This document shows positions 14,345 through 37,892 of a stretch of 37,948 bases of DNA, one piece after another (within the stretch, counting starts at the first letter, position 1; each line of letters begins with the position of its first letter). Made by a program: the position numbers and the translations under genes. The notes under the pieces are model-generated. The model saw only the letters and a list, made by a program, of their open reading frames with translations. It searched no databases and was not told the DNA's origin. Origin of the DNA: Neodothiora populina (lineage: Eukaryota); NCBI RefSeq assembly GCF_041146345.1, contig NW_027191411.1:1984001-2021948 (forward strand). The letters are read 5' to 3'.

Positions 14345-16364
14345 CTTGACGGAACAAAGTCGGCGAATTTTCTTATAATGGCATGCAAAGTACGTACGGC
14401 CAGCGCATCAGAGGATTCACCGGCATATTTGAATACTTATCGTATCAAAATGAGAATAGCCAAGGATTGAGTTGTAGCAGTGACTTGTGCTTGAAACAAA
14501 TGCTTAATAAGATTTATCAATTACAACCACCCTCGTAAGGATAATCGAAGGGCTGGCATCGTGCTTGATAGTGTTTGCCGTGTCTAGCCAACATGTTCTC
14601 GGAAGTGAACGTTATGTATAGGCTTTCTTGGCAGTCTAAAGTGCCAAGGTAGCGTATGTCGCAGAGATTTGGTGCACAGATTGAGATCCGGCAGTCTGGA
14701 TGACCACATGGCGCAACGCTTTTATCAATAGCTCGCGATTAATCTGGATCAGTATTTAAGAAATCCTGGGGGTAAGTTTGACGACAACGCCGCCTAAACG
14801 AGCCGCCGTTATACGTTAGCCTGCGAGATTATGCTTGGCTCACAGTGTCTTGACAGAGAGCAGCATGACTTTTGCAAGCATCTGGAGCTCCGTTCACTTG
14901 TAACTCCGAGGACATTGTGAGACACCGGGCGCGGCTCTTGACCTGGTGAGATAACATAATCATTTGTCGCAGACTGCCGTGAGAACGTTGGCGACATCGT
15001 AAACCACACTACGTCAGCGCATGAACGTGACGCTGCTAAAGTGAAGGAAAACTCGATTAGTGGCTTACCTCTACGCCTATAACGTGCTTGTTAAGAACAT
15101 TCCCGATGCTCATATTGGTCGTCTAATACATGAATGGCAGCAAATTAGCTTCGTATCTTTTTGTTGTCTCCTCAGGCTTTCGTGGGTTTCGCTCCTCCAC
15201 ATCTCATGACGAGCGAGACATCGACATTGGCATCGTGGGCTCGACCCTGGAACACCTGCACACTCCGTTCTGCAAAATCGACCAAATTGTCCTTCACAAC
15301 ACTGTAATCATCGGAGATATTCTTACATGGCGGGTGAGTGATTCTCCGAGTTCTAGACAATTCCAGCGTTGAATGAATCCCACCTGGGGTTACATCATGA
15401 GAGTATCGAATATACAAGGTCGACATCCATCCATCTGATAGACATACATCGCCTGACGATTGCCTGCATCTTCAGCCACATCCAAGCAGGCAGCTGCATC
15501 CGGCGGGACCGAAGTCAGGGAGTCTGAAAACTATTACTTCCAGTATGATCTGGCGAGGCTGCGATAAGGGATGCTAGATGGGTAGATTATGTGCTCTGGC
15601 GCATGTCTTCACATTTTTCCTCGACTCCAAGTGTCCCAATGCAAGAAGGCAAGTCGCTGCAATAAAAGTGTTTTTTTTTTTCAAAGCTTCTAAAGCGTCA
15701 TGATTGGTTCGTGATGATGCAGATACGACAGATTGGCTTCTACTAGCTCCAGTTAAGACTACCTAGCGTCTTTACCCGCCGAACTTCCGGGCTTCTCACA
15801 GAAGCCACAGTGAGGCAAATAGGGCACCTTATCTACTGTACTATGGCGAAACAGTGAAATTTACAGCGCGATTGCCTGGCAACAACTATTTCATGGATGG
15901 CCGAGCTATATATGTGTTGAGGTGCTGCTCTGGCTTTCTTGGCTGCTGTCAAGCACGCTTCGAGCTTAGTTATGCCGGTTTCTTTGGAATTGAGTGAGTC
16001 TGTGGGTACTCCTGGTGACAGCAACAATACGTATGCCTCACCAATACGCGACTCCGAGATGACCCCCTCGCATTAGCAAGAATCAGGCAATTACCAGATT
16101 TGACCCAGTGGGTTCGAACTGTTGTTGATAGTAATAACGATCGCATTGAGTCTTGTGTTAGCAGGCATGCCGAGGGCATCTTTCTTCTTTCGTGAGGAAG
16201 AATAATCTCTAACGTCTCTCAAAGGAAGCTCAGATTGTAGCTACCGCTGTGCCACATATTTAGGCTCTGCTTTCTGCATTTAGGTGTGCTACGTATACAG
16301 ATGTGTCGCCCAGCTTGGATATGTCCCTTCGTGCTTCGAACAAACTTCTGGACTTACTTGTGTA

Positions 16365-17030
16365 TCATCCAAGTCTTGCATATTCGACTGCGTTACTAGA
16401 CCATCTACTTGTGCCAGTCCTCGAAGCGTGTCCACGGTCTATATCTCCTCGTAGAACAGTATCTCTAATGCATATCAGTCCCTGAAACTTGCCTCGGTCT
16501 TTGAGGCTGACCAGGTCGATAACAATGATGGAGACCAGTGAGCTGATCCCGCCTCCATCAACACCGCTCAATGCCCGGCATATGTATAGCCACAGAGGAG
16601 TCTGCGCCCATCCGCAGAACAGACCTCCTACGATGATACACGAGAGCGCCGCTAGAAGCATTGGTTTGCGACCTGCAATATCAGAAAGCCGGCCATGCAA
16701 GGGCTGGAAGGTCGTTTGACCGAGCAGATAGGCTGTACCAAGTAGTTCACTGGCGATGGTGGGAAGGGCTGTAGTGGTGGAATTCATGTTTACATACGAT
16801 ACGAGGTAGCACGCGCAGAGACGCAGATAAGCTGTAACTAAGCGAGGAAAGGAAAGACGAAGCGTCTGATCGTGCAAGCGGTGCACGAGTTCAGGTGGTA
16901 TTTTAGTGTCAGACCTTCGGGAAGGCAAAGCCATCTTTGCTAGCTGTACTGGTGCCCTTGTATTGCTCATGGCCGGGGCCTGTGATTGAATCTCGACGTC
17001 TATCGGCCTGAGTATGATCTCGGAAGCCAT
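16365..17030 (-). pseudogene. Truncated MFS drug:H+ antiporter (DHA2-like) remnant
   Basis: HDQTLRLSFPRL...TTALPTIA...GTAYLLGQTTFQPLHGRLSDIAGRK (MFS motif A)...RALSGVDGGG...DLVSLKDRGKFQG; similarity ends near 16475 after about 4 TM segments, and the TM1-TM2 loop looks deleted. Confidence 0.7.
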
Positions 17031-17885
17031 TCTATGCTGTGCACTCAAGGGTATACACTGTGCTGAAGACCTTGTGGGGAATCTGTATCTTTTGTAGCAC
17101 AATCTGCTATACCGCCGTCGCAGGATGTTGTATTCGATCACGACAAAATGCGACCCCCACTCACATGAGAGTCATACATATATAGAGTGGCCAGCTCTGG
17201 AAGGATTTCCATCCTTGCAAGCTTGATATGGTACAGAATCGTGACGTATAGGAGGGTACCGCAAGCACACGACCCCACGCCTTTTGTCCAAAATTGATAT
17301 TGAACAACACTCACCTAAGTGCTTCGTAATGCTTAAGGTATGATCTTCAGTACAAACGATACTTCACTAAGAACTTGTTCTTAAGATCGAATTAGTCGTC
17401 ACGAATATCAAACACGGATACGCAGCCCGACCAGGCCCGAATCATACCTACCACTACATATTTTGGTTTATCGACGACGGTCCTCCCTAACCTTTTACAG
17501 AAGAGATGAGATGATGGTAGTGTTATTGCAAGCAGTTTGACTTGCTTATGCGGTCTGATACTACTCGGCATTGTTTCCAATAAATTACGATGATCGGCAT
17601 GCGGGCTGAAGCCGGAAGTCGCTATCACACCCCGCATGGCGACATATACCCCACCTGTCACACGAGGTCGATCCAAATAACCAGATAGCTGCTGGTACCC
17701 AAGTCGAAACTCAATTCTTGACATGGTCCACGTTGCTACCATGTTTATAAAGAAAGTCACCCCCTGGTGGAAGCCTGGAAGGTCGTACAACATCTGCACG
17801 TGTAGAACAGTAGCAAAGTCAACAGGAAAAAGCATCGCCGACGAACATCGATAACGAGCAGTCGTCTTTGCTCCAGATTTCTACT

Positions 17886-19661
17886 ATGGCCGAAGCCGTA
17901 AATAACGTGAGGAACGGAAGGCCGGGAAAGAAGAAACAACTCATCATCAATGCTTTTGTTGAATCATGTATGTCCACCGGTGCCAGATTATGGTTACTAA
18001 AGGCTGAGAAGAGACTTCTACAACAGGCAGTGGACATCAGTCTCCTGGTCTATGGAGACATCCCGAAGACAAATCGTCCGGCTTCAACAAGATCAAGCAC
18101 TGGGTTGATCTTGCAAAACTACTCGAGAAAGGCAAATTTCACGGCATGTTCATCGCAGATGTCTTGGTAAGATTGCGTGGCGTCCATCTGGAAACAGTTG
18201 TGCCGCGAAGTCACAGCTAATGTGCGTCTTCAAAGGGTGCCTACGACGTTTACAAGGGACCTCAAAATCGTGATCCAGCCGTCATATCTGGTGCGCAATG
18301 GCCAGTCAACGAGCCTCTAGCGACTGTACCTGCGATGGCAGCTGCTACCAAGAGTCTTGGATTCGGTGTCACATTGGCGACTACTTATGAACAGGTGAGG
18401 GCTTATTGGACACCTTGTTGGAAACACCAAAAATCGAGTCTTGAAGTTCTAATCATTCGATGGTAGCCATATCATCTCGCACGACGACTCAGCACGGTTG
18501 ATCATCTCAGTAGTGGAAGGGTTGGTTGGAACGTAAGTGCTGCCCCTTTTGTCCCTCCAAACCTTTTCTTCCCATGGCGTAGACTCCTGTGTGACGCTTG
18601 CTCACGATGGGTTCTAGGTTGTGACTGGTTATCTTGACTCGGCAGCTAGAAACCTCGGTCATACTGAGCAGCCCGAGCACGACGAGCGCTATGCCATCGC
18701 CGAAGAATATGTGGAGGTCATGTATAAGTTATGGTAAGTCACAAATGCAACAACGGGTATCGTTCGCCGCTTACAGTTTCCTTCCAGGCAATCGTCATGG
18801 CGCGACGACGCAGTGAAATTCGACGCTAAGTCTGCTGTATACACTGATCCAGCATTAGTCAGGACGATTGATCACGTAGGAAAATACTACAAAGTTCCTG
18901 GCCCGCACATCTGTGAGCCTTCACCGCAACGCACCCCTATTATCATGCAAGCTGGGACCTCAAAAGCGGGAAAGGAATTCGCTGCCAAAAACGCAGAAGC
19001 CATCTTCGTCGCTGGCCACAGCCCGTCGGTTGTGGCGAAGAACGTTGCTGAGATAAGGTCTTTGGCCAGCACCAAGTATGGCCGCGACCCCTCGAGCATC
19101 AAATTCCTTGCCTTGCTCTGTCCAATAATCGGCAAGACAACAGAGGAAGCAGAGGCGAAGTACAATGAATATGTCAGTTACGGGTCTGAAGATGGTGCGC
19201 TTGCCCTATTTGGAGGTTGGACAGGAATCGACCTCGCCCAATATGATGACGACCAAGAACTTCGCCACGTTGAGTCGAACGCAATCCGCTCAGCCGTCGA
19301 GGGATGGTCGAAGGCTTCTCCCAACGTAGCAAAGTGGACCAAGAGGACAGTGGCAAATCATATCAAAGTGGGAGGGTTGGGCGCCACCGTCGTAGGTACT
19401 GCAGAGAAAATCGCCGATGAATTAGAAAGATGGGTCGAGGAGGCAGACGTGGATGGATTCAATATCGCCTATGCGGTTTTCCCCAAGACGTTTGAGGAAG
19501 TCATCGAAGAACTGCTTCCTGTCCTACGCCAACGGGAGTTGTTCTGGTCGGATTATGCTGTCCCCGGGGGAACATATCGTGAGAATTTATATGGTGTCAA
19601 AGGGCTGGCCTATCCGCCTAAGGATCATCCGGCAGCGGCATATCACTGGAAAGCGGAATAG
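17886..19661 (+). CDS. Luciferase-like FMNH2-dependent monooxygenase, DszA/NtaA/SnaA family (paralogue 1); 6 exons
   Basis: Spliced translation NAFVESCSGHQSPGLWRHP...FIADVLGAYDVY...[36 protein letters not shown]...PSPQRTPIIMQAGTSKAG...DGFNI. Introns 17968-18026, 18167-18235, 18395-18466, 18533-18617 and 18734-18787 are all GT-AG and frame-preserving. Confidence 0.92.
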
Positions 19662-19909
19662 ACAACGTAGACTGTAGCACGAGTAAATCTGCAATCAGCG
19701 TATATATGGAGTGAAAGTCCTGAAGTTTTAGTATTTCCATGCTTGTCTATGTCCCTTATTCAATCACCTTAAGTAAAGTTGCCAATGACGAAACAGTCAC
19801 ATTTGTACAGCACACGATCTGGACCTCCACATCTGGTAGGAGCTTCGCATCGAATTGTTGATTAATCTATATAGATGAATCTTGATCATCTCGTTCAGCT
19901 CGAGGCTGC

Positions 19910-21667
19910 TCACTCTGGGACAGGCGCGTCCTCACTCGCCACGTCCGCGCGCCATCTGTATTTGGCAGCAACATGTTCACTAGGCGGTCCGGTCTGTCCA
20001 GGTTTCTGGTAGAAGTTTTCTCTGTAAGTGCCTCCAGGTACGGCGTAACCATCCCAGAAGAGGCCTCTCGCGCGGAGTTCCGGCAGTAAGAGATCGATGA
20101 TGTCTTTGAATGTTTGTGGGAAGAGAGAGTATGCCTTGCACAGTATTAGCTGCCGTCATCTGGATATCTGCGGTTTTGTGTTGACTCACAAAATTGAAAC
20201 CATCAACATCGGCTTCAGTGAGCCATGTCTCGAGTGCGTCGGCAACTTGTTTTGGGTTACCCACAATCAAAGGACCATTGCCTCCAATGCTGATGTGCTC
20301 GGCGATAGTGTCCCTGGTCCATTTCTTGGTGCCAGGCGAGAATCGGGCATAGGCTTGAACGGTAGACCTAGAAGTCAAATAAGCAGTATGTTCATGCACA
20401 TCAGTCTATATGATCACTCACTTGACGGCATTACTCTCGACTTCTCTCAGCTCCTCATCGTCACCATACTTGCCGAGATCTATACCAGTCCAACCGCAAA
20501 ACAGAGCAAGGGCTCCTTCTAATGAGGCGTACTGACGGTAATCTGCCAATTTCTTTTGGGCAAGCTCCTCTGTTTCGTCGACGATAACAGTAACAAGAGC
20601 AAGAACCTTGATGTTGGTAGGATCTCTCCTATTCTGCTTGGCAAGTTCTCTCAAATCTCTGATACTGCCAGCAACGACTTGCGGGGCAAATGCGGAAACA
20701 AAGACTGCTTCTGCGTGGCGAGCACCGAAATCCTTACCAGCTTTGGATGTGCCCGCCTGCAGGATCAGTGGGGTGCGCTGAGGGCTAGGTTGGCAGATGT
20801 GAGGACCTGGGACATTGAAGAACTTTCCGTTGTGGTTAATCTCGCGGACGAGCTCGGGCTGGGTATAGATGCCCTTTTCGCGATCCAACTTGACGGCGTC
20901 ATCTCTCCACGATGACTCGAGGAGTTTGTAGATGACCTGGACGTACTCTTCGGCCTTGGCATAACGTTCGTCGTGGGCGAGCTGCTCCTTGCCGACCATA
21001 TTCCGCGAGGCACTATCCAGATAGGAGGTAACGATGTTCCATCCCAGACGTCCCTTGGTCAGATGATCAGCGGTCGACAGTCTTCGCGCCAGATGGTAAG
21101 GATACTCGTAGGAAGTTGAGACAGTGACGCCAAATCCGATGCTCTTTGTCGCAGCAGCCATGGCCGGGACAACACTCAAAGGCTCGTTGACTGGCCATTG
21201 TGCGCCTGATCTCTTTGCTGCATCAAGGTTCCCATTGTAGACGTCGTAGCCGCCTAGACTGATGTGTCAGGATTTGGGGAAGCATCTCTCGCACATACTG
21301 CGCTAGAATCACAGATCATATCCACGCAGCGCTCACGACTTACCCAGGACATCTGCAATAAAGATGCCGTGAAAAGACGCCTTTTCGAGAAGTTGAGCCA
21401 GTTTAATCCAGTGGTCGACGTCGTTGAATTTCCAGGATTCATCTTCGGGGTGTCTCCACAGACCAGGGCTCTGGTGCCCGCTGCCTGTAGTTCTGTGTTA
21501 GAAAATGTTCTAGCCAAATTCGGGAGTCTGGAACGACCGTGACGACCAGAGGATTGTTAACAAAAATAAGAAATCTACTAACACATCTCGACAAAGGCAT
21601 TGATAATAATGTTCTTTTTCCGCTCAGGTTGAACGGAATGACGCACGTCGCTGTTTGAGGCGGCCAT
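19910..21667 (-). CDS. Luciferase-like FMNH2-dependent monooxygenase, DszA/NtaA/SnaA family (paralogue 2); 5 exons
   Basis: MAASNSDVRH...NAFVEMCSGHQSPGLW...FIADVLGGYDVY...PSPQRTPLILQAGTSKAG...DGFNFAYSLFPQTF...DAPVPE* (TGA 19910-19912). Introns 21485-21582, 21254-21343, ~20368-20421 and ~20135-20190. Confidence 0.92.
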
Positions 21668-22512
21668 TGTTTGTGTGACTATTATTCTTGACGCCTAAGA
21701 CCTCGAAACGACAATAGTCTAAGTCTAACACACTTCAAGAAGAAATGTTGCACTTTATTGTTCAGAGGAAACCTTTAGTCGAGTGCCAGTCTTCTGGTAT
21801 ATTCTTAAGCTTCTAGCTAAAGTGCTTCATAGAAGTGTGTGCCTCGCCTTATTGACCCTTTCAAAAATCGACTTGACTGGACACAACCCATGCACTTATC
21901 GTACTTATCAATCTTTTAGTAAGGTCCTCTCATATCCACCACGCTCTTGGCCTGCCATGACTTGTTGTCGAAGGTTGTCGTCCAAGGCCTCGCATACCAA
22001 TGGTGTGATCGCACGTCATAAAGCCAGTCCCCCGAAGTTATGCAAATCTCCCCGCGATTCCGCGATAAGCCAGCGACACCCGCTCCCTTGTATAGCCCGA
22101 CTCCACTCGTTACTTTCTACGACGACCATTTGCCGTCTTTTACTCGTTATCTTCAATATTTGGTCCCAACAAAGCCCCTCTCTCAGAGATCATGCCCCGC
22201 TCTGGATGGACCAATTCGCATCGCCAATCACGTAAATTGTCGAGTCGGTAGTGGGCTGAATCAGTTGAGGGCGTAGGGGAAGACTCGACCGGCATCGCAT
22301 CTCGCGGCCGAGACTAGTAATCATGAATCCCACGTGCACTTGTTCATGTCTTTGCGTAAGATCAATATCGTAATCAAGGACTAGCATCTAAGTAGCTGCA
22401 AGCTGTTGCGTGTATCTATTTCCTGTCCGAAAAAAAAGATATATCAGATTCTCATCATTCTTGCATTCCTGGGAAGCCTATTCTTCTAACTGTCTCCAAA
22501 TATACGCATACA

Positions 22513-23857
22513 ATGGCATTCATTCCTTCGAGCCAAAGAGCTCTTTCATTGCCTGCCATCCGTCAGAAGTATCAGCTGGAAGTCGGGCACCCCGTCCCTG
22601 CAATTCGGGATGAACACGAGATACTCGTCAAGACCGAAGTCATTGGCTTGAACCCAATAGATTGGAAAGCACCGTATGATCGAGCCAGTCGGGTGTCCTC
22701 GATAGATGAAGAAATGACGCTGACACTTGCATTTCGTAGTGACTTTGGCTTTGGCATTCCCGTTCTGCCATATATCCCAGGGCGAGAGCTCGTCGGTCAT
22801 GTCGGACACAGCGCCCCGAATTCTACCTCATTGTTCTCCTCGCGGGTTAAACATGGGGACAGAGTCGCGGTGATATCCACAGATTACCGCGACCTCCGGA
22901 AAGCAACATATCAAGACTATGTTATATCCAGTCACTTCAACGTCGCCAGACTGCCCGAGCATATCTCATCCGAGCAAGGAGCCGCAGTCGGTGTGGCCTT
23001 TGTCACCTCGGCACTAGCTCTGGGTATATGCTTGGGTTTGGATTTCTCCAATGTGGCGGACGGGCCCGATCTGCTTGACATTGTGCGAAGTATTGACCCG
23101 GACCGACTCCCAAGCGACGTCCAAGAGGAATGTCTCTCAGGCATCGAAACACATGAGCGACCACAGAAAGGGGACTGGATAGCCATATGGGGTGGTATGT
23201 ATACCCACACTGGTCGACTCCGCCATTTCGGCACTAATAATTCATGAATCAGGATCTTCAACCTGCGCGTACATGATCAATCAGCTCAGCCGTTCCGTTG
23301 GTCTACGCACCATTCTTGTCCTCGACACTCAAAAGCATGGCCATTATCTAGCCAGCGATCCGGCCCTCCATGCAGACTTTATTGTCGACTCTGCAGACCC
23401 ACAAAGAGCAACGGAGATTATCCGATCAGTGACAGATGGCAAGCTGCGTTTCGCCATTGACACCATCGGTAGATCTACTTCAGAATTACTGGCGCAGTCT
23501 CTCCAGGCATACAGTGCAGATCTTGAAGTTCGCGCACAAACCCCACCGGGAACACCGCCATCTGACGCTGTAGACAAGGCGTCGATTCCGCAGAGGTCAC
23601 ATCTCACTGGGCTCGCAGCACTACCTAAAAAGCCAACGGGAGCTGTGTTACATAGTGTCCCTGTAAAGCTGTTCCATGACATTCCAGAGGTAGGAGAGGC
23701 TTTGGTGGCATGGTTGGAGAGGCTATTGGACTCTAGACAGCTATTGCCACCGAGAATACTTGGGGTAGTCGAAGGCCTTGAAGGTATCAACGATGGGCTT
23801 GACAGAATGCGGAGAGGAGAAATCAGTGGCGGGAGATTGGTTGCAAGGATTCGATAG
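22513..23857 (+). CDS. Medium-chain dehydrogenase/reductase (Zn-free enoyl-reductase/quinone-oxidoreductase-like); 3 exons
   Basis: EILVKTEVIGLNPIDWKAPDFGFG...PGRELVG (GroES-like), IAIWGGSSTC (Rossmann), GLEGINDGLDRMRRGEISGGRLVA. Introns 22674-22739 and 23195-23252. Divergent from DszA paralogue 2. Confidence 0.88.
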
Positions 23858-24193
23858 GTCGTGGGGCGGCGCAAGGTCGCGTGAGGTTCAAATTGATAAA
23901 TCGGTAGACGGAGTCGACTTACAAAGGCGATCCGAAAAATTTGCATGGCTCGGGCCTCCAATATACATATACCTGGCCGTTTTATGTTCACAAGAATTCA
24001 CATTCGCATATTCTCCGCATCATTTGCTACGTGTAATAAAGACTATTGTAATTAGGTATTATCCTTTTCAACAATCTGATCGGACTCGACCTATTCGTCT
24101 AGATCAAGCTGTTGGAATGTATGGCTTCGACATAGTTATCTCACATCAGGTCACTCCAATTTTTCCCCTCCTCATCCATGTCGTCGGTCATAA

Positions 24194-25852
24194 CTACCTC
24201 ACTTCTCCATCGGCAGGCGCTGTAACAGCTCTATCCAATACTCCCAACCCATTTTTCTCCCTCGCACTTCCCGCATCCGCATCACTGCTATCTGCTTCAA
24301 TCGTCCGATCTCCCTCTGAGCCAAAGTGCCTCAATACTAACCATACTGGAGCGAGACTAATCGCCCACAGTGCAAAGTTTAGATAAACACCACCGACCTC
24401 TGCGAAAAGAACAATCGATCCCAGTCCATAACTGACAGCCTGCCACGCCGACTCCGTTCCACGAAGCAGTGCAGCGTATCGCACGACTTCTTGCGAGTCA
24501 TCCGCCAGGTTTGCAACGATGAAGTACAGAAACAGATAGTTGAGTTGGAAGCCTGCACACAGAAGAATGTATGGTGCAAAGGCATGGCCGAATCCGCTCG
24601 AAGCCCAGTCATAGGTTGGCTGTGTGACCTTAAATCTCGTGACCAGTACTGTGGCCCAGATCCACCAGCCACCTTGCAGAGTGATGATGACGAAAAAAGA
24701 AATTCTGGTCCTCTTTTGTAGTGACACGACAGTCCTATCGAGGAAAGCACCAAGGACATTTCCCATTGTCACAGCGACGATTCCCGAGAGGAAAGAGCCT
24801 AGCGCGCGTGCACGAACCGAGAACCATAATGAGAGATAGGTATTGTAGACTGCCTCGCTGTAAACTGCCTGGCCAATAAAGAGGACAATGAGGAGAAATT
24901 TCTTGGTGAAGAAAAGGCGGGTCGTGAGTTTGATCTCCGACCATGGACTGTTGAGAATCGACAGTTCGACTTTGCGACCATCAGTACGCTCAACTTTGCT
25001 GGGGGAGTTGAGGAAAAACGCAACAAAGGGACCAGTGCATTGCAAGGCAATGAAAATGATGTATACTGTGTAAGACACGGAGCCGGCCTCGCTGCGATCC
25101 GAGTTGATTCCAAGGTTGATGGCTCCTCCGAGAATCTGTGTATGTTGTCAATACTTACATTTCATCAAATTTACGAGAGGTCTCGAGGAATGGGAAGCTA
25201 GTATGAATAGGACAAACTCACCTGTCCTCCGAGACGATAGGTTAGCCAGTAGCCCAAGACTTTGCCTCGATTATATGGCTCCGGGTAGACGATTGCAATG
25301 GCAGCCTCGGCCATCCAGAAGATACCCGCCGACATACCACACAGTGCCGCTCCTACGAGAACGAGCCATTCGTTGCCGTATCTATTGTTGGCATAGAGCC
25401 CCGCAGCATAGGGAGCGTATCCGATGGTGCCGACCATCAGAGCGCCTTTGATACCGATATAATGTACGATTGCGCTACTAAAGTAGCAGGAGATGACCAT
25501 GAGGCAGAAAGTCAGAGCATTGGCTGTGTTGACAAGGTACGGGCTTTGCGCTCCACCGGCTCCCAAACTGTTCATCGCACCCCAGATGCCTATCATCAAT
25601 TCAGTATCAGAGAGACATGGTCTGGAACTCGGCATAACTTGAGCTTCTTACCTGGTGCTGCGAAGTTACAAAGACCGAGAATGGTTGCATTGAATAAAGT
25701 GGAACGGTACCATCTAACTGTATCCTTCTTCAGTATCGATATTGATGTTGGTCTGCCACGATGTGCAAGCTGCAATATTATGCCATACCTGGATACTTTT
25801 GTACATGTTTCAAAGTCGGAGAAACATCACTGACCACGTAGTCTACTGACAT
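24194..25852 (-). CDS. UNC-93-like (DUF895) MFS transporter; 4 exons
   Basis: Spliced N-terminus MSVDYV...VRWYRSTLFNATILGLCNFAAPGIWGAMNSLGAGG, then GAALCGMSAGIFWMAEAAIAIVYPEP and RYAALLRGTESAWQAVSYG; about 12 hydrophobic segments. Confidence 0.85.
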
Positions 25853-26756
25853 GATGACTTGAGTCTTTGTCTGTATGCGAGTCGTGATACCGGTTCGCTT
25901 CCTAAGCTTTATGAGAGAGAGATAGGACGAGTGATATGGAAAACTTATTGCGTTGGTTAATCATGGTGGTAACCATCGTGTTTTATATTGTTGTCTTTTC
26001 AATTATACACATTGGAAATACCAGATGCGTGAGCCAGCCTCTTTGTGTCGAAGAAGCGGCATCCGCATCCAGCTGCATAGAGCCATCGAATGTCACCATT
26101 CATGGCGGCATGGCGCTATAGTTCAACCATCAAGTATTGCTACCAAGAAAGTCTTGGACGCTGCCGCGTCTTATCATAGTTTTATCCTTATTTTCGGCTA
26201 CTGAATCCATCGTCGGGTAGAGGCTTGAGAATGGATATTGTTGGTAGATGTTCGGTGGATACAGTTCCGAACCGGTTGCATTTCTCGCATGTCATCGCAC
26301 GCAATTGAGATGGTTCGGGCGGTGCCACGAAGTGGAGAGTTCAGCGGGACAGGGCATTAAATTGACGATCAGGGTTCAGAGAAAAGGTGCGTTTAGGCGA
26401 CAGTCAACTTATTGCGAAGGTTCTATCGAGATATCCCAGCACATGCGGCAGTTGACAGGATATCGGTGCGGTATTGAGTGGCACACGTCGTTATTGCGAA
26501 ACTCGGATTGACGACGAGAGGAACGATCCACCGTGATGCAAGACTGATCTCGTCGGGATGACAGGGGGTTTTATACGCTCCCCTTGTTTCATTTCACTTT
26601 TCGTATGCGAAGTAAATCATAGCGACAGTGATGAGCATTACCTGCTGGCGATGAACTGGTTCCATATTCTACCTTGTCTAATCCGCAAAGCACGGGATAT
26701 TTTTCTGTCGGTACCGCAAAACGTACTCAATTAGATAACCATGAGTACGCAGCTTT

Positions 26757-28704
26757 TCAGAAATCCCACCACCTCTCATGCAAATCTCTCAAGTCGACCC
26801 CAGGTAATTTTAGGTAACCCGTGATATCAAAGTCCGGATCCAGTTCCTGCTTCGTGTAACCATTTCCGAAGTAGGCAAACCGGTTGCCAGAGTCAGAATG
26901 ATACTCATACTCCCAGTCCTCCCACCTCGGCTCTCTCCTGACAATTGTCACATGACTTGCACTGCCTGGCCAGATGCCGTGAATCCTCTGCCCTGGTTTA
27001 CCGCCATTATACCACGAGCTACAGTCGTCGGAAAAGACTGTCTGAGGAAAGAAAGCGTCGGCGTACTCGACAAAATCATCTGCAGCTCGCTTCGATGGTG
27101 TGATTGTCTTGATACCTTGAGACGAGACCTTGCGCAGGACTTTTGCGTAGTACGTCAGCTGGACTTCAACAGCGTGAGGAATTGTGCCCGATGGTCCTGT
27201 CGCATTCGGGCCATGGACAAGGAACATATTGGGAAACTCAGGAACAGCGTGTCCCAGATAGCTATACGGCCAGCCGTACAGCCCGCCGGGCTTCCACGCT
27301 TGTGAAAGATCTTTTCCGTTTGCAAGGATAGGAAATGGGGGAACGAGATCGACATTTGCTCCTGTTGCGCAGAAGATGGCGTCAACCTCTCGATGTTTGC
27401 CGTCTGTAGTCTCGATGCCTGTCGAGGTGATCCTTTTGATGGGGGTTTGAATATAGTCGACGTTTGGCTCCGTCAGACTTTCAAGATAACCAGGCCCAGG
27501 AGTCAGTCGTCGGCAATTAGGACTGAAGTCTGGGACAATGGTGTTGATCAGCTCAGGTCTTTTGGCCGTCCTTTGTTTCATGACCTCGATAAATTCGTTT
27601 CGCTTCTTATTGTTGGCCTCAGAGCCGATGAAGAGCGAATCGAAGTTTCGCCAGTACTTAGCCTCAAGCTGCTTTCGAAACTGCAGATATTTCTCGGGAT
27701 CCTCGAAGTCCTTCAGCTGCTCGGCCGAGTAGGGCTGGGCCTCGAAAGTCCGCTCGTCGCCTGCCCAGGATGTCGCGATCCAGGTCTTACTGCGCGCGTA
27801 GTGGTCCACTCTCTTTGCAACCTTTTGCAGGTTTGGGACCACCTGGATACCGCTCGCACCATTTCCAATGACCGCGACATTCTTGTCCTTGGGGTCGAAT
27901 GATGGATCCCAATTCGATGTGTGTCGCAACACTCCCTTGAAATCTTCGAGACCGGGGTAATCTGGCAGCTGCCACGCATTGAAGCGGCCAAGTGCCGACA
28001 AGACAAAGTCGGTTTCAGATTCGTGGACTTGACCGGTGGTGGTATCCCGGGTTTCTGTTCGCCACACAGATTTGCCTTGATCCCATTCCAGATGGACGAC
28101 CTCTCGATTGAATTCTATCAGTCTATAGACGTCGTACTTCCGCGCCTGGTCCTGCCAATACTGTCGGATCTCATGCCCTTCGGCGAATTGCTGCGACCAT
28201 TGTGTGTTGGGAGAGAAGGTGGCTTGGTAGACATGAGCTGGGATGTCGCATCTGACGCCGGGATACACGTTCTCTAGCCATGTGCCGCTCTATAGATAGA
28301 TCGAGCATTTTGTTAGTCTATGAGAGCTCTTGGTCGTATGCATGTGGCTTTTGCGGACCACTTACCACATCGGAGTTTTTCTCCAAAATCGTGAGCTGGA
28401 TTCCAGGGACCTTTATTGGCAAGAGAATGCCGGCCAGGATACCAGCAAGACCTGCTCCTATGACAGTCACCCGAAGAGGGCGAACCTCGTCGATGTGACG
28501 ATTCTCCAGCTTCAGATTAGACTTGGGATACGAAGGCCGCTCTCCATCAGGGACTGGACCGCCCGTGAGCAAAACAGTCTCTGCCCCGTTGGGTTGGGTC
28601 GTTTCAATCCCTTTCGTGATCTCGTTACTTCCGTGATTGGTGGTTGCAGCATGACTGTTAACATGTCCACCCTGTTGCTCGGGTACTGATCCCTCATGCG
28701 CCAT
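26757..28704 (-). CDS. FAD/NADPH-dependent monooxygenase, Baeyer-Villiger (BVMO) type; 2 exons (intron 28290-28365)
   Basis: VIGAGLAG, SGTWLENVYPGVRCDIP, fingerprint FKGVLRHTSNWD (FxGxxxHxxxWD), second Rossmann IGNGASG, ATG motif (FCATG). Confidence 0.92.
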
Positions 28705-28865
28705 TATTGTCGTGTTTGGATAATTTCGAGTACATGTACAACCAAGCTCAGAGCCTTACAACAAGCTCTTTGGACAGGACTTGGTCTCATCGTTTACTAA
28801 ATACTCTGTATCACATTCTGGAAGGGTCCTAGGAGGGGTAAATTATCATGTCTTTATCAGTAGCG

Positions 28866-29216
28866 ATGGTGCAATCGACCCCGGTCGAAGTCTCCACATA
28901 ACGCGGAATCACGTCTTTGAGCTCGGGCGGCAGCCGCGGGGTGGAATTAGCGAATTGGCTTGGTGATTAGATGCGACCACATGCAAATTGATAACGACTA
29001 TACTCATAACTTCCACGTATTCGTAAGCTTGAGGTTGGGATCTACCATATCGCGAGCGTATTGTATCATGGCGCGATGAACGCGAGTGACTCCATGATCG
29101 CTGACCTCCTTTGGTCTATACAGCTCGTACGACAGATTCTAGAGTTCAAGATAGATGACAAGTATCTGGCACAGTATGCTGCACCAATTCCATGTAAGTA
29201 GTCACCATGGCGTAAT
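28866..29216. promoter_or_regulatory. Three candidate CYS-3/MetR-like sites upstream of the BVMO gene
   Basis: ATGGTGCAAT (28866), ATGGCGCGAT (29068) and ATGGCGTAAT (29207); each is one mismatch from ATGRYRYCAT. Confidence 0.45.
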
Positions 29217-29374
29217 AGCAGACTCCATCGTTATAGAATCAACAAGAATGATCACGCGGTTTTCACAGTAGTAAATGGCTAATCAATTTTCAATTTTCGA
29301 TAAGTTCATCTATGTCTGGGTGATGTGATAGTCATGCGTTCGACGTTTCCACAAGAACAGTAATCCTGTCATGT

Positions 29375-30475
29375 TCATGCTGCGGGGGCACTCTCGGCCC
29401 TCTTCTTGATCTCTTCGTGCACACTGGGCACCACGTATCGTCCATAATCAACTGCGTCGTTGAAGTTGTCATAGCCTCGTATACTGATGAGTTCGCAGCC
29501 GAGCTCCACATAGTCAAGGATGGAGTCACTAATCGTCTGCCAAGATCCGACTAACGCGGTTGATGCACCACGGGCGTTCGTCGCTGTCACCGTGGGATAC
29601 CATAAGCCACGATCTTGAACCTCTCCTTTGGCAGCAATGTCGAGCAGTCTCTGCGATCCGACATTCTGTGGCGGGGGTGCACTTGCAGGCACCTTGCCCA
29701 CCCCATTGGCTCGGTGAGTCTTCAGGGCATCGAGCGTGCGATGCGCCTTGTCCCACGCAAGCTCCTCCGACTCGGCACCAATTGGTCTGAATGTGACCCA
29801 GATGCGCGGCCTGTCGCTACGACCTGCCTTCTCCGCCTCGGCATAGATGCGATCGATCTGCTGCTTGGTCTCCTTGAGAGGTTCCCCCCAGAGACCGAAT
29901 ATGTCAGCCAGGCTGCCTCCGATGCGGTAGGCTTCGTCTGATGAACCGCCCACCGACACTGGGATTGTGCTGCCATTCACGGGGCGCACTTTGTTGCTGA
30001 ACTGCTTGAACTGGAAGTACTTTCCATCGAAATCAAACGGCTCTGAGGAAGCCCAAGCCCGGCGCAGGATCTGGATGTACTCCTCGAGCCGACCATATCG
30101 CTGTTCCTTGTCCAGAAAATCACCTTCGCGGGCTTGCTCGGCGTCGCTCCCGCCGGCAATGAGATGCACAACTGCGCGACCGCGGCTGAGCTGGTCAAGA
30201 GTGGCAAGAGCTTTTGCTGCGACTGTAGGGTAAAGAGTGTTTGGGCGGAGGGCAATGATGATCTTGAGCTTCTTGGTCGCAGCCGCGATAGTGGCACCAA
30301 TAGTGAACGGATCGTAGGAAGACGAGTCATAGGGTACAAGAGTGTAGTTGAACTCATAATCATCCAGAGCCTTAGCATAACGTGCGAGATAGTCCGGATC
30401 GATGGAGGCATTAGGCACAGGCTTAAGCTCTGTCGAGGCGTTGGGGAAGGTTACGCTGATGAACTCTGTCGGCAT
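29375..30475 (-). CDS. Intronless luciferase-like monooxygenase, SsuD/alkanesulfonate monooxygenase-like
   Basis: 366 aa ORF: IIALRPNTLYPTVAAKALATLDQLSRGR, FDFDGKYFQF, VGGSS, WGEPL, GASTALVGS; all typical SsuD/LLM motifs. Confidence 0.9.
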   Translation of the reverse strand: MPTEFISVTFPNASTELKPVPNASIDPDYLARYAKALDDYEFNYTLVPYDSSSYDPFTIGATIAAATKKLKIIIALRPNTLYPTVAAKALATLDQLSRGRAVVHLIAGGSDAEQAREGDFLDKEQRYGRLEEYIQILRRAWASSEPFDFDGKYFQFKQFSNKVRPVNGSTIPVSVGGSSDEAYRIGGSLADIFGLWGEPLKETKQQIDRIYAEAEKAGRSDRPRIWVTFRPIGAESEELAWDKAHRTLDALKTHRANGVGKVPASAPPPQNVGSQRLLDIAAKGEVQDRGLWYPTVTATNARGASTALVGSWQTISDSILDYVELGCELISIRGYDNFNDAVDYGRYVVPSVHEEIKKRAESAPAA

Positions 30476-31254
30476 GTTGTTGACGGTGTCAAGGATAGCC
30501 TCGAGACTTTTTGCTTGGTCTTTGTTTATCAGACAATGTTTATACAGGGAAAAAAGATAAAAGGCTTAGCCATTTCATCATTGCATCGACTATATTACTA
30601 TGTGTGAGGGTGTCGCCAAGACATGAGGATAGCAACATATGCACCGGAATCACGCAATGCAGCGTATATTGATAAGCAGCTATTATCACGGATCTCGCCA
30701 GCCGAGATCAGGCTGCTGTGGGTCTACCTTGAACTTCCGTTGAAATAAGTTATATGGATGTCGCCCTTTAGATGCGGGCATCGGGACAGCAGGTGACAGA
30801 TCAGTAGATACTTGTACTGTATCTGTGGTTACGGCAGTGTGTTGGGGTGGACGATGAGCCGTGGGGCGGCAAAACTGGGGTAAGTTACCTTATAATCCTA
30901 ATAACTCCTCCACAATCTATACCATAACAATTCAGTGGTTCGCCTATTCTTGCTTCGTTCCATCAACACAACTCATGAGCTGTAGAAGTAAATGATATCT
31001 AATGTTAGTGCATGCCTGTATAGAAACAACACACGGCTCAGGGAAACAATACACTACAATGGAATTACGTCTTACTAGATAAATGTCATCTTGTTAAGGA
31101 CTTTCTTGATCGATAGTGAATGTCAAAGTTCATTAATACTGATGCTCTATGATAGATCCCAGTGCTTTATCTCAGAATTACAAGCTCTATACCACATTTC
31201 AATGCTCCATAAATCCCTGATGTGATATTCTACCCATATCTGGATGCCACCTCA

Positions 31255-33512
31255 TCAACGTCTCCATTCCTTCAGTATCCCACGAGTGGCCTTCGCAATT
31301 GCATGCCGTCCGTCGTACACAGGGTAGACTATTACTGCATACATTGCAAAGAAATGCCAGATAATAGCCATAGTGACCCAGCCGCTGAAGAATGTCTTCG
31401 TAAAGATATAGTCGCGGTACAAAGGCAAGGGCCAAAGTACGATGGTAACCAAGACATTGACCACAAAATACACACTGGCGATTTTAAACCACCTCTTGAT
31501 GTGTTCGATTGTCGCCTGATCAAAGGGATGTTCGACTTGGTCCAGATCATCTGCGGTACTAGATTTTCTGGACTTAGGTAAGGTTGATCCCTCTTCTTCT
31601 CCGCTACTGAATCTCGCTTCTTTCTTCTCGTCGTCTTCACCTGCCGTAGTTCCTGATGCCTCTACAATCTCATCGCTCGCCATTCTGGATGGAGTGGAGG
31701 TGATCAGTTGGCTCTTATCTTCGATGAGATCAATTTTAAGGAATTCTCGCCAGTCGAAGCGTTTGGGCCAAGTCAGTGAAATGACCACCGAGTAGATAGC
31801 GGGCGAGAAACAAGACACAATCGCTCCGTAAAGACCCGGAAGCTGAACTTGAGTGGTTTGGATGTTGATCGCACCTGACCAATACCATGACAGGCTAAGC
31901 CATGTTGCAATGCCTGACAACAAACCCAGCACGGGAGCTAACATGGCTGCTAATCTTGTCTGCCCAGACCAGAGTAGGGTCAGTATCAATGGTATGATAC
32001 CCGGACATGCAATTATAGGTCGGAAGTAAGTAGACCAGTTGTTTGTGGCCCCGGCATATTCTAGCATGATGGCGAAACCCGCCATGAAACACCCATGAAA
32101 GACAACGCCCCAATGACTAACTTGGAGAGTCTTGCGATCCGAGGCTCTTGGATTGATGTAGGTACGGAAAAAGTCGAGAGATATGATGCTGCTGACTGCG
32201 ATCATGGACGACGACACGGTGCTGGTGATGGCCATAAAGACAAGTACGAGTAGACCGGCGGTGGCTCCCGTACCAAGCAAGGACCTCAGCACATATGGCA
32301 TCACAAGCCCAGAATTGACCTGTGTCAAAGTAAGTGTGTTCGGGAAATCGAACCAGACCGGAGTCGTCTCAATGACACGAGCACTCAAGCCAATGATGGT
32401 TCCCGTGCACCATGGTATGGCGATAATCACAATTGATACCAATCCGTACGCCGGAACGGTAGCGTGGACGTCAGACGCAAAGGACTTCTGCCAAAATCCT
32501 GTGTCCATCATGACAAGTGCTAGATTACCAAGCTTCAAGACCAAACCGAAAAGAACAGCTGCACACAACGATCAGCATTACGATTTCTGATTGCCGAGTT
32601 TTCTGGCGGGGCTTTCCTTACAGCTCTTGGACTTCATGGTCAGGAGTGAGCCTTGATAGTTGCCAGCAACGTGAACGTCGGCTGCTTTGACTTTTGCATA
32701 CAGTCCCGAGATGCCGCCAATATGCTCATTCGTCAAGACTGCTAGAGAAAAGTAGATTAGGAGGATTAGAGCCACAGTGGTATGCACAAAATCGGTAAGG
32801 AAGGTGGCTTTGAGCCCACCGACAGCGGTGTAGATGACAACTACGAAAGAGGTATCAGCCATTATATTTGGGAAGAAAGAGCTCGCAGACTGGACGGTAC
32901 TCACCCCCTGCGGGAATAAGGACACAAGCAGCAACGACATGCATGCCTGTCATGCCAGTCACTAGTTGAGCGCCTGCAAGAATCATGCTGCCGCAGCCGA
33001 AGATGTTGTTGATCAGGTTCAAGAGGATGAAGATCCAATGCACGTAAGGTCCATATCTGATCTTCATAATCTCAAGAGAGGTATGCGCGTGTGGCACACG
33101 TAACTTTGCCACGATTCCGAGTACAGCCATAAGTGCAATCTGGAATGAGAGGCCACTGGCCCACCATATTGGCAAAGCGATACCCCATTTGTACGTGTAG
33201 GCAGCCGAAAAGACGCTTTCATTGATCCACATCCTATGGTAATACTCGGGTCAGCAAAACATATTCCGGAAACTGCAAAGTCTCTATATCAAAGGCAATA
33301 CATAGCACATACCAGCTCGAGAAGACGGCCGAAGCTGTCAGACCAGTACCAACAGACCGGTTTGCAACCATGAACATCTCCGACTCATCACTGTCTTCTG
33401 AGAGATATCTCTTCTGTATCTGCACTGCACCCAAAATTATGAGGCAGAACAAGACTGAGAGCCCAATGATGATACCGTACCCGTCTGCCTGCGTGAGGAG
33501 TTCGGTGGCCAT
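31255..33512 (-). CDS. DUR3-like sodium:solute symporter family transporter; 4 exons
   Basis: EMFMVANRSVGTGLTASAVFSSWMW, PHAHTSLE, YTAVGGLKATFLTDFVHT, GNYQGSLLTMKSK, FMAITSTVSSSMIAVSSIISLDFFRTYINPRAS. First intron 33234-33312; two more near 32850-32905 and 32550-32620. Confidence 0.9.
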
Positions 33513-33667: not shown

Positions 33668-33677
33668 ATGGTGTCAT
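33668..33677. promoter_or_regulatory. Candidate CYS-3/MetR bZIP site ATGGTGTCAT upstream of the DUR3-like gene
   Basis: Exact match to the Neurospora CYS-3 consensus ATGRYRYCAT, 156 bp upstream of the ATG. Confidence 0.5.
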
Positions 33678-34139: not shown

Positions 34140-34620
34140 TTCGATGGTCTATTGTGAGTTCCAATTGTCGTTGAACTGTCACCTGGGGTCTTAGGGTACC
34201 CTTTAAGAAGCAAATAATATTAGTACTTAAGGAGATCTGTTTGCTTGCAAAGGGGGGTGATCTTTAAGACTAACTCTTATAATAACTTCCTATAATCCCT
34301 TTGTTAGTCTTAGTTAGCTTAAACAGATGCATAAAGTGTAAGGCTTACCTTACGTGCATTCTCTTCATGTAATGCGGAATAGTGCTATCCTATTTCCTGA
34401 TCACTCTAACTACAGTGCCTATAACAGTATCGATCGCAAACTCTGGGTGTGACTAGTCTGTTGTTTAGGTAGCAACCGATACAATTATTAATGATCTAGC
34501 AATAATTAGTATAAGTGCAGCGAAAGCTCTTAGCGGGTTTCGCAAAACAATTCTTTGTTGTTATCAAGTCTGGCTAGACTTGCTTGCCGTATATAGCCTA
34601 AAGTAATTGCCTTTCGCCTA
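34140..34620. other. AT/TpA-rich patch resembling RIP-mutated DNA
   Basis: Visibly dense TA/TTA/TAA words (e.g. taactcttataataacttcctataatccctttgttagtcttagttagcttaaac) compared with the rest of the window; no index was computed. Confidence 0.4.
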
Positions 34621-37600: not shown

Positions 37601-37892
37601 CATTATTGGACGCGTTGCGTACAGACTTCATGTAGTTTTTGTGAACATAAGGCTGCATTCCTAGCGATGTCGTCGTCCTGATGGAACTCAGAGCTTCCTC
37701 GACGATAGCCGAGCCGGCGGAAGACGACGCCATACTTCGTCTGCTGTAGCGAACAGTCAACTTCACACCAAAGTATAGAACGGCGCAACCGAATGCGAGG
37801 GACCAGATGAGCTCGAACATAAGAACCCAATCTAGAGCAAAGCACACTACAACAGCAGCCACAAGCGTTCCAAGAGCACCGATTGTCTGAGA
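34564..37892 (-). pseudogene. ABCB/MDR full-size ABC transporter pseudogene, 5'-truncated by the telomere
   Basis: TMD1(partial)-NBD1([22 protein letters not shown])-TMD2-NBD2(GATGSGKS). Frameshifts at ~37408 and ~35042, a frame change at 36479-36533, NBD2 signature degraded to SSVGQ, and a premature TAG at 34618 before the natural end AKGNYFRLY...* at 34564. Intron 34919-34976. No start codon or promoter. Confidence 0.9.

Follow-up and report, generated by a model that had tools for sequence, protein, structure and literature searches.

The question raised by this locus is whether seven adjacent genes of the fungus Neodothiora populina, three of them encoding luciferase-like monooxygenases (LLMs), act together to free sulfur from organic compounds. 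The genes occupy positions 17886-33512 of a stretch of 37,948 nucleotides (contig NW_027191411.1 of assembly GCF_041146345.1, positions 1,984,001 to 2,021,948 of the forward strand), called the window below, and an earlier note on the sequence had proposed that they form an organosulfur-scavenging cluster. They comprise a conserved core of four genes, encoding an LLM (LLM2), a medium-chain dehydrogenase/reductase (MDR), an UNC-93-type transporter and a Baeyer-Villiger monooxygenase (BVMO), and three variable additions, encoding a second LLM (LLM1), an SsuD-like LLM and a DUR3-like symporter. It is likely, in our assessment, that this is indeed a sulfur-starvation cluster that scavenges sulfur from organic compounds, its core having been joined by LLM1, the SsuD-like gene and the DUR3-like gene in this lineage. 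Gene content, intactness, synteny as read through proxies and enrichment of regulatory motifs in the promoters were observed here, and to these come the co-induction and CYS-3 binding of the counterpart genes in Neurospora crassa, established by others; gene content, synteny, regulon and promoter sites together uphold the proposal.

Seven intact genes and a conserved core

Families were assigned with Pfam over all 107 stop-to-stop open reading frames (ORFs) of at least 85 amino acids in the window, and with NCBIfam over 20 pieces. The earlier description of seven contiguous, intact genes is borne out: two LLMs of the NtaA/DmoA family, an MDR (ADH_N), an UNC-93/MFS carrier, an FMO-like protein of BVMO type, an SsuD-like LLM and a DUR3-like symporter of the SSF family follow one another in that order, the outer coordinates being the start codons of LLM1 (17886) and of the DUR3-like gene (33512), and none of the seven models requires a frameshift or an in-frame stop. 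The genes are as follows.

17886-19661, plus strand: LLM1, an LLM of the NtaA/DmoA family and paralogue of LLM2; 6 exons (17886-17967, 18027-18166, 18236-18394, 18467-18532, 18618-18733, 18788-19661), 478 amino acids
19910-21667, minus strand: LLM2 (core), a DmoA/LadA-like monooxygenase of the NtaA family; 5 exons (21667-21583, 21484-21344, 21253-20422, 20367-20190, 20134-19910), 486 amino acids
22513-23857, plus strand: MDR (core), an atypical oxidoreductase of the MDR superfamily; 2 exons (22513-23194, 23253-23857), 428 amino acids, ab initio model
24194-25635, minus strand: UNC-93-type MFS transporter (core); 2 exons (25635-25222, 25135-24194) and 451 amino acids in a simple model, the 5' end of which could reach 26099
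26757-28704, minus strand: type I BVMO (core); 2 exons (28704-28366, 28289-26757), 623 amino acids, ab initio model
29375-30475, minus strand: SsuD-like LLM, intronless; 1 exon, 366 amino acids
31255-33512, minus strand: DUR3-like solute:cation symporter; 4 exons (33512-33313, 33233-32905, 32840-32622, 32558-31255) separated by three well-formed introns, 683 amino acids, ab initio model

The evidence for introns consists of homology and splice signals. Models of LLM1 and LLM2 were guided by the Elsinoe australis orthologue P0121 and contain nine junctions, all of them GT-AG, with introns of 54-98 nt, and the MDR, BVMO, DUR3-like and UNC-93 models come from an ab initio, dynamic-programming gene finder. 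When set against the homologue-guided models the finder reproduced LLM2 exactly and placed three LLM1 acceptors wrongly, so that the exon edges of the four ab initio models must be taken as approximate; the single BVMO intron (76 nt) has the form GTAAGT...TAG. A 5' exon that the finder had added to the SsuD-like gene was rejected, the orthologues being collinear and 358-390 amino acids long. Scans for tRNA genes and Rfam families across the window returned nothing.

Membership of LLM2 in the NtaA/DmoA family (TIGR03860) is secure, with 349.5 bits on its 282-residue exon alone against a cut-off of 279.7, and the unspliced last exon piece of LLM1 scores 279.5 bits against the same curated cut-off, with a further 34.2 bits on another piece. 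Once spliced, the two proteins are 61.6% identical over 479 aligned positions, and LLM1 has an orthologue group of its own, 11 of 138 relatives being nearer to it than to LLM2. The earlier label 'DszA/NtaA-like' keeps its family but not its namesakes: the best matches of LLM2 in the PDB, over 270-280 residues, are the dimethyl-sulfide monooxygenase DmoA (6ak1, 298 bits) and the long-chain alkane monooxygenase LadA (3b9n, 297 bits), with DszA at 181 bits, NtaA at 136 and EDTA monooxygenase at 100. DmoA and LadA, bacterial enzymes of the same family (TIGR03860), act on mutually unrelated substrates, and likeness alone consequently leaves the substrate of LLM1 and LLM2 unfixed. Among the named matches, LLM2 is closest to Elsinoe australis (90% identity on the exon, 88.6% spliced), followed by Myriangium duriaei (81-84%), which places the host near the Elsinoaceae (Dothideomycetes), and the spliced protein is 72.4% identical to XP_959879.1 of N. 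crassa, named 'dibenzothiophene desulfurization enzyme A'. Its bacterial relatives (47-53% identity) are encoded next to ACAD-type monooxygenases, a pyridoxal-phosphate enzyme of Cys/Met metabolism, a sigma-54 activator, an NlpA lipoprotein or an SsuA-like ABC transporter.

The remaining core proteins vary in how closely they conform to their families. The MDR passes the ADH_N cut-off (26.7 bits against 23.5) and falls below that of ADH_zinc_N (15.4 against 31.8), its best PDB match is a quinone oxidoreductase (1yb5) at 36 bits, and neither the GHE nor the GxGxxG motif was found in it; it is best classed as an outlying, zinc-less member of the superfamily. The UNC-93 carrier passes PF05978 marginally (24.2 bits against a gathering cut-off of 22.9) and also matches MFS_1, and the nearest protein-atlas clusters are fungal UNC-93/MFS clusters carrying PF05978 and PF07690 (score 0.98). 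Type I BVMOs are recognised by the fingerprint FxGxxxHxxxW[P/D] lying between two GxGxxG dinucleotide-binding motifs, and this arrangement is present here, with FKGVLRHTSNWD at residue 230, GAGLAG at 83 and GNGASG at 255, in a protein that has FMO-like and Pyr_redox_3 domains and finds its best PDB matches in cyclohexanone monooxygenase (144 bits), phenylacetone monooxygenase (137 bits) and steroid monooxygenase. On the exon, the BVMO is 81% identical to that of Sphaceloma murrayae and 80% to that of Elsinoe australis, and the Myriangium duriaei BVMO is 75% identical. Outside the core, the DUR3-like protein matches SSF on two exons (25.5 and 30.8 bits, cut-off 22.8) and the DUR3 urea-proton symporter in the PDB at 147 bits, the runner-up reaching 23 bits, and the SsuD-like protein matches the luciferase-like family PF00296 at 237.5 bits.

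That LLM2, the MDR, the UNC-93 gene and the BVMO form a unit is indicated by other genomes, in which adjacency was gauged from protein tables by two proxies, equal contig size and the spacing of GenBank protein accessions. LLM2-type and BVMO orthologues sit on contigs of equal size in 18 of the 22 species present in both match lists, including contigs of 32.8, 41.6, 67.9 and 114.9 kb; the contigs differ in the other four (Glonium, Periconia, Coniochaeta sp. 2T2.1 and Cladophialophora bantiana). Rhinocladiella mackenziei was left out of this count, the LLM listed for it being of LLM1 type. For 12 of the 14 assemblies, of Dothideomycetes and Sordariomycetes, the accession spacing falls in the range 2-6; it equals 3, meaning two genes between, in Elsinoe australis (both assemblies), E. 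ampelina, E. fawcettii, Lepidopterella, Whalleya, Corynespora and Lophium; it is 2 in Myriangium and Delitschia, 4 in Cercophora and 6 in Apodospora. The co-occurrence in other genomes that a functional cluster leads one to expect is, by these proxies, observed.

The Neurospora counterpart and sulfur control

Evidence for a role in sulfur supply comes from N. crassa, where six adjacent genes, NCU05883-NCU05888, rise roughly 100- to 1000-fold on sulfur starvation in a CYS-3-dependent manner (Data Sets S1 and S2 of PMC8550094). By product name and by order, LLM2, MDR, UNC-93 and BVMO of the core are the counterpart of NCU05888 through NCU05885. Transcript levels given there, in fragments per kilobase of transcript per million mapped reads (FPKM), are listed by gene, with sulfate first and without sulfur second.

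NCU05883, xenobiotic compound monooxygenase: 0.06-0.40 and 141-376
NCU05884, MFS transporter Seo1: 0.82 and 87.6
NCU05885, flavin-binding monooxygenase: 0.63 and 98.3
NCU05886, DUF895 domain membrane protein: 0.15 and 50.9
NCU05887, oxidoreductase: 0.15 and 197
NCU05888, dibenzothiophene desulfurization enzyme A: 0.64 and 175

The UNC-93 domain was formerly called DUF895 (PMC2064135). In the cys-3 mutant all six genes drop to 1 FPKM or less, each of the six has a CYS-3 peak from DNA affinity purification sequencing (DAP-seq) at a distance of 282-998 bp from its start codon, with NCU05883 at 282 bp, and NCU05884-NCU05888 are marked 'CYS-3 bound and regulated', whilst the next genes, NCU05889 and NCU05890, are flat (PMC8550094). 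Co-induction on sulfur limitation, which the earlier note had named as a check on its proposal, has thus been seen for the Neurospora counterparts. NCU05887 and NCU05888 have one common CYS-3 peak, 610 and 590 bp from their ATGs, so that the LLM and oxidoreductase genes lie on a divergent common promoter, as LLM2 and the MDR do here. Both clusters also have a second DszA-family LLM. It stands at the opposite end in Neurospora, which moreover has a Seo1-type MFS gene without an intact counterpart in the window; and its alkanesulfonate monooxygenase genes (mox-7, 27 against 187 FPKM) and urea transporter gene urt (3.8 against 16.9), also members of the sulfur regulon (PMC8550094), lie elsewhere in the genome, whereas homologues of both adjoin the core in N. 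populina. As a separate observation, NCU05883 is missing from the differential-expression sheets of that study, although its FPKM rises and a CYS-3 peak is recorded for it.

The promoters of the cluster point in the same direction. The CYS-3 footprint consensus ATGRYRYCAT (PMC8550094), sought at up to one mismatch unless stated, occurs 35 times in the window; 23 occurrences are inside gene spans, and the other 12 all fall in the six cluster promoters (5175 bp), with none in the 6.7 kb of other non-coding DNA. Five of the six promoters have at least one site (LLM1 1, LLM2/MDR 1, UNC-93 5, BVMO 4, SsuD-like 0, DUR3-like 1), some of the sites overlapping. Shuffles of the promoters that preserve dinucleotides give 2.99 +/- 1.75 sites, and 0 of 300 reach 12; in a stricter set, with the UNC-93 promoter cut to 26100-26756, there are 9 sites against 2.6, a number that 0 of 300 shuffles reach. 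The sites and promoters concerned are listed here.

17636-17645: CYS-3-type site with one mismatch, 250 bp upstream of LLM1
21668-22512: divergent LLM2/MDR promoter, with one CYS-3-type site at 22000-22009
25636-26756: UNC-93 promoter region, with five CYS-3-type sites (25704, 25777, 26090, 26102, 26110), reduced to 26102 and 26110 if the gene starts at 26099
28705-29374: BVMO promoter, with four CYS-3-type sites (28866, 29060, 29068, 29207)
33668-33677: exact match to ATGRYRYCAT, the sole one in the window, 156 bp upstream of the DUR3-like start

Since 0.81 exact matches are expected in the window, this last one is not significant by itself. ATGGCGCCAT, at up to one mismatch, has 4 occurrences against 0.13 expected. 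The DAP-seq motif ATBRCGCCATC, likewise at up to one mismatch, occurs 12 times in the whole window against 4.24 expected, and 3 times in the promoters alone against 0.5, which 5 of 300 shuffles reach. Of the yeast-type sulfur motifs, CACGTG occurs twice in the promoters and CTGTGGC does not occur there.

From these elements a pathway can be sketched. Under sulfur limitation, a bZIP activator of CYS-3/MetR type would bind the ATGRYRYCAT-like promoter sites, and the UNC-93 and DUR3-like transporters would import organosulfur compounds. The BVMO, using NADPH and FAD, would then oxygenate thioether sulfur to the sulfoxide and the sulfone, as the chemistry of its family allows, sulfoxidation being a well-known side activity of BVMOs. 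By the chemistry of their own family, LLM1 and LLM2 would cleave C-S bonds with reduced flavin mononucleotide (FMNH2), as DmoA, DszA and SfnG do, and the SsuD-like enzyme would free sulfite from the resulting sulfonates. The MDR might handle an aldehyde or enone by-product or serve the flavin supply, with FMNH2 itself coming from a reductase encoded elsewhere. Which substrates are used, and that the steps run from uptake through S-oxidation and C-S cleavage to sulfite, we infer from the kinds of protein encoded.

Several points weigh against reading the locus in this way, and they should be considered together. Chief among them is the absence of a flavin reductase: none of the 107 window ORFs has a flavin-reductase domain (FMN_red or Flavin_Reduct in Pfam), which leaves three FMNH2-dependent enzymes without the partner that bacterial operons encode, and none of the product names in the Neurospora data set, in the supplement of PMC8550094, contains FMN, NADPH or quinone. 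The synteny is by proxy, contig size and accession spacing standing in for adjacency at the level of DNA, and the LLM2-BVMO spacing is wide in Elsinoe batatas (55) and Pleurostoma (125). We infer the orthology of the MDR and UNC-93 genes to NCU05887 and NCU05886 by product name and position, and the identification of XP_959879.1 with NCU05888 likewise goes by product name. NCU05883, despite its rise in FPKM, is marked 'No' for confirmation by differential expression (PMC8550094). The CYS-3 consensus is borrowed from a Sordariomycete, of another class than the host, and an unbiased search of the promoters for 6- and 7-mers gave nothing past Bonferroni correction. To the same side belong the ambiguity of substrate that follows from LLM2 being as close to LadA as to DmoA, the excess of GATA sites in the promoters, and most of what was found for the SsuD-like gene, each of which bears on one of the alternatives that follow.

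Alternative explanations and the SsuD-like gene

The best-surviving alternative confines the functional unit to the four-gene core and takes LLM1, the SsuD-like gene and the DUR3-like gene for chance neighbours, perhaps sulfur-regulated separately; we think this rather unlikely, though deserving of serious consideration. It turns largely on the SsuD-like gene. The earlier label for it stood as far as the nearest solved relative goes, which is E. coli SsuD (154 bits, with P. fluorescens MsuD at 137), but not at the level of the SsuD equivalogs, against which the protein scores 179.6 bits (TIGR03565, cut-off 518.2) and 182.4 bits (NF001939, cut-off 510), about a third of what is called for. The sulfonate-binding motif comprises, in MsuD numbering, Trp195, Arg225 and, in a loop, Arg296 and Ala/Ser299 (PMC8234197). 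Trp196 and the loop Arg302-Gly-Ala-Ser305 are kept, as the Trp and Arg-Gly-x-Ser loop of SsuD and MsuD, and three of the four motif positions with them. Unlike those enzymes, the protein has Thr228 at the place of SsuD Arg226, which is essential, and Arg230 at that of His228; an R225A variant of MsuD is inactive (PMC8234197). We class the protein as a member of a separate subfamily common to ascomycetes and some bacteria. Among the matches listed, orthologues from four classes of ascomycetes all show an identity of at least 79%.

The company that the gene keeps elsewhere favours the core-only explanation. When metagenome contigs were scanned with 24 aligned SsuD-like orthologues from fungi, 79 loci were returned, none of which has relatives of the BVMO, DUR3-like, UNC-93 or MDR genes beside the SsuD-like gene (tblastn, E<=1e-10). 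Neighbours differ from those in the window at all eight annotated loci of fungal or eukaryotic appearance, two of which have neighbours identical to each other, and the SsuD-like and LLM2 orthologues lie on contigs of equal size in 1 of 8 species, and on different contigs in the other 7. On these counts the SsuD-like gene is to be regarded as stand-alone in most other fungi, and as a lineage-specific neighbour of the core here. LLM1-type genes, too, are off the core contig in Lepidopterella and Lophium, and the SsuD-like promoter (30476-31254) has no CYS-3-type site at up to one mismatch. That promoter also contains 8 HGATAR sites, the most of any cluster promoter, and the gene may be under nitrogen or other control. 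Against the core-only explanation, in Corynespora cassiicola the accession of the SsuD-like orthologue differs by 4 from that of the BVMO and by 7 from that of LLM2, so the extended arrangement is not unique to the window genome. The N. crassa cluster includes a second DszA-family gene, NCU05883, the sole exact CYS-3 site of the window is in the DUR3-like promoter, and homologues of the SsuD-like and DUR3-like genes are in the Neurospora sulfur regulon (PMC8550094).

The bacterial relatives of the SsuD-like gene form a subject of their own. Many of the metagenome loci whose proteins are 72-79% identical to it look bacterial (GC content 0.57-0.65, ORF cover at least 0.86); the bacterial-looking group consists of L008-L010, L013, L020, L024-L025, L028-L049 and L078. 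Four of the five annotated ones have an Opp/Nik-type ABC importer and an SfnB-family oxidoreductase beside the SsuD-like gene, three of these four with a second LLM preceding it and an MsuE FMN reductase after it, two with a PanE-like reductase and one also with SsuA/TauC-like genes; the fifth has a divergent transporter of SsuA/SsuC/SaoA type. The recurring set, at L020, L033, L045 and L009, includes a TIGR04028-family binding protein in three loci and a KPN_01858-like LLM in three, and has the appearance of an as yet uncharacterised operon for sulfur scavenging, whose source might be sulfur-containing peptides. In a tree of 87 SsuD-like sequences a single clade (SH-aLRT 96) unites all the named fungi with the low-GC loci, and is placed among bacterial groups within a clade of support 99. 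The tree, a quick, midpoint-rooted one which shows no direction of transfer, suggests a single old inter-domain transfer of the gene, from bacterium to fungus or the reverse, after which the protein looks to have evolved very slowly.

A different substrate altogether is envisaged if the locus serves the catabolism of hydrocarbons or ketones for carbon by subterminal alkane oxidation, in which a LadA-like LLM would hydroxylate, the MDR would form the ketone and the BVMO the ester, with transporters for substrates or products. This is chemically coherent. The LadA score of LLM2 is at the level of DmoA, the best solved relatives of the BVMO oxidise ketones, and a gene of the alcohol-dehydrogenase superfamily lies between LLM2 and the BVMO. 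We nevertheless hold it to be improbable: the Neurospora counterparts answer sulfur starvation through CYS-3 while the carbon supply stays the same (PMC8550094), the promoters are enriched in CYS-3-type sites, Pfam finds no esterase among the window ORFs, the MDR is without zinc-ADH motifs, the bacterial relatives of LLM2 are in sulfur-type contexts, and an SsuD-like gene is attached.

Very little credence can be given to nitrogen scavenging, in which NtaA-type enzymes would cleave C-N bonds of aminocarboxylates or similar compounds and a DUR3-type carrier would take up urea or polyamines under a GATA factor of AreA/NIT2 type. The LLM family does include nitrilotriacetate and EDTA monooxygenases, and the symporter is nearest to urea-proton symporters, but NtaA (136 bits) and EDTA monooxygenase (100 bits) rank far below DmoA (298 bits) as relatives of LLM2, and N. 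crassa urt is itself in the CYS-3 sulfur-starvation regulon (PMC8550094). HGATAR sites reach 5.6 per kb in the promoters, including the 8 of the SsuD-like promoter, against 3.45 in control DNA, a small excess in raw site density.

That the genes are tailoring functions of a secondary-metabolite cluster built around a nonribosomal peptide synthetase (NRPS)-like enzyme at the window start (2-2935) can be practically dismissed: although such a gene is there, and BVMOs, MDRs and MFS pumps are common as tailoring or export genes, 15 kb separate the two, filled by a homeobox/C2H2 gene, a transposase remnant, an ORF of 1129 amino acids, a GH3 gene and an MFS relic, and the tables of PMC8550094 give no NRPS-like product name among NCU05883-NCU05890.

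Borders, known systems and significance

The rest of the window frames the cluster that we favour as one for organosulfur scavenging. By Pfam, no polyketide synthase, NRPS or terpene synthase lies within 17886-33512, in keeping with the earlier note's statement that no such backbone is present, the nearest being the NRPS-like gene, 15 kb away and probably unrelated to the cluster. The other features are these.

2-2935, minus strand: NRPS-like carboxylic-acid or amino-acid reductase of A-T-R type (AMP-binding, PP-binding, thioester reductase), running off the window start
5066-6028, plus strand: ORF with homeobox-KN and C2H2 zinc-finger domains, a single stop codon separating it from an ORF that has a Tc5-transposase helix-turn-helix domain (6032-6760)
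8372-11758, plus strand: uninterrupted ORF of 1129 codons, the longest unexplained one in the window
12087-14344, minus strand: apparently intact gene of GH3 beta-glucosidase type (Glyco_hydro_3, Glyco_hydro_3_C, Fn3-like), with one intron and 731 amino acids in the ab initio model
16368-17171, minus strand: MFS transporter relic at the left border, matching MFS_1 profile positions 1-125 of 347, only the N-terminal third being recognisable
34574-37948, minus strand: full-size ABC transporter gene at the right border, in four domain-bearing pieces in different frames, running off the window

The segment 5066-6760 is either one intron-containing gene or else a fusion or relic of transposon origin, and the 1129-codon ORF has no Pfam or NCBIfam match at E<=0.001. 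Pseudogenes had been placed on both sides of the cluster by the earlier note, and the left one stands: 17 further minus-strand ORFs of at least 35 amino acids at 14507-16438 give no Pfam match that would continue the MFS relic, an ab initio model of it reaches a score of 16 at best, where cluster genes reach 54-131, and the clusters returned by a protein-atlas look-up were all generic (MFS, Sugar_tr and TRI12), none of them assigning it to Seo1 or Soa1. It looks like a former drug:H+ antiporter. The right one is probably a degenerate gene or pseudogene, part of which lies beyond the window: credible introns are absent both from the three places where its four domain-bearing pieces meet, the best candidates there scoring 1.4-4.5 when GTAAGT...YAG plus a branch site would score 8, and from the place where an unassigned 5' piece adjoins them, and the second ABC_tran domain lacks about 22 positions of its profile. 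The ab initio finder was not trusted for this gene because its model cut through an intact ABC_tran domain.

Among known systems, the cluster also resembles the bacterial ssuEADCB, msuEDC, sfn and dszABC operons, which likewise place FMNH2-dependent LLMs of the SsuD and NtaA/DszA/DmoA families beside uptake genes and are induced by sulfur limitation. The differences are considerable, and the cluster would work in the manner of such two-component systems without belonging to them. Firstly, those operons encode a flavin reductase, and none is found here; secondly, they use ABC importers, where MFS and SSF carriers stand in the fungus; thirdly, the fungal cluster has a single-component NADPH/FAD BVMO and an MDR and is without ACAD-type (SfnB/DszC) oxygenases; and finally, its genes form no operon but have separate eukaryotic promoters under a bZIP factor. 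A parallel in chemistry is the assimilation of dimethyl sulfide by Acinetobacter baylyi ADP1, in which several flavin monooxygenases take the sulfide through sulfoxide, sulfone and sulfinate or sulfonate to sulfite for sulfur supply; the S-oxygenations there are carried out by two-component group D enzymes fed by one reductase, MsuE, whereas the candidate here is a type I BVMO, and in A. baylyi no luciferase-like (group C) enzyme oxidised dimethyl sulfide (PMC13352529).

A more far-reaching proposal can be put forward tentatively, as possible rather than probable. The core, often with a second LLM, might be a pathway under CYS-3/MetR control, widespread in filamentous ascomycetes, that obtains sulfur from thioethers and sulfones, with dimethyl sulfide, methionine-derived compounds and plant S-alk(en)yl compounds as candidate substrates; the BVMO would replace the ACAD-type two-component S-oxygenases, the MDR would be an NAD(P)H-dependent flavin or aldehyde reductase, and at least the SsuD-like member would have come from bacteria by one old transfer.

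As to novelty, full-text literature searches, from which most subscription journals were out of reach, returned no described fungal cluster of this composition; apart from one unrelated paper, the six NCU numbers turned up only in PMC8550094. The earlier note's statement that no characterised one was known holds to that extent, but the Neurospora counterpart genes were already in a published regulon table, unremarked as a cluster; in the passages searched, the main text of PMC8550094 mentions NCU05884, NCU05886 and NCU05888 one by one and nowhere presents them as a unit. Taken individually, then, the genes of Neurospora are published regulon members, and what is new is the view of them as a cluster, a eukaryotic counterpart of the bacterial sulfur-starvation operons that differs from them in composition and is conserved across classes of ascomycetes, to which two further regulon-type genes are attached here.

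How fungi cut the C-S bonds of sulfides, sulfones and sulfonates is an unresolved question on which this cluster bears directly. The fungal enzymes for C-S cleavage of organosulfur compounds have been described as uncharacterised, and their study as a priority (PMC5857272). In the published data the Neurospora version ranks with the loci that CYS-3 induces most strongly (PMC8550094), and its six adjacent genes offer a target that is well delimited and open to genetic work. To this the SsuD-like gene, itself nearly bacterial, adds what is probably an instance of gene transfer between domains. As the composition of the cluster is unlike that of every bacterial sulfur operon, with a BVMO and an MDR and neither a reductase nor an ABC importer, its enzymology may be new, and may find use in desulfurisation biocatalysis.

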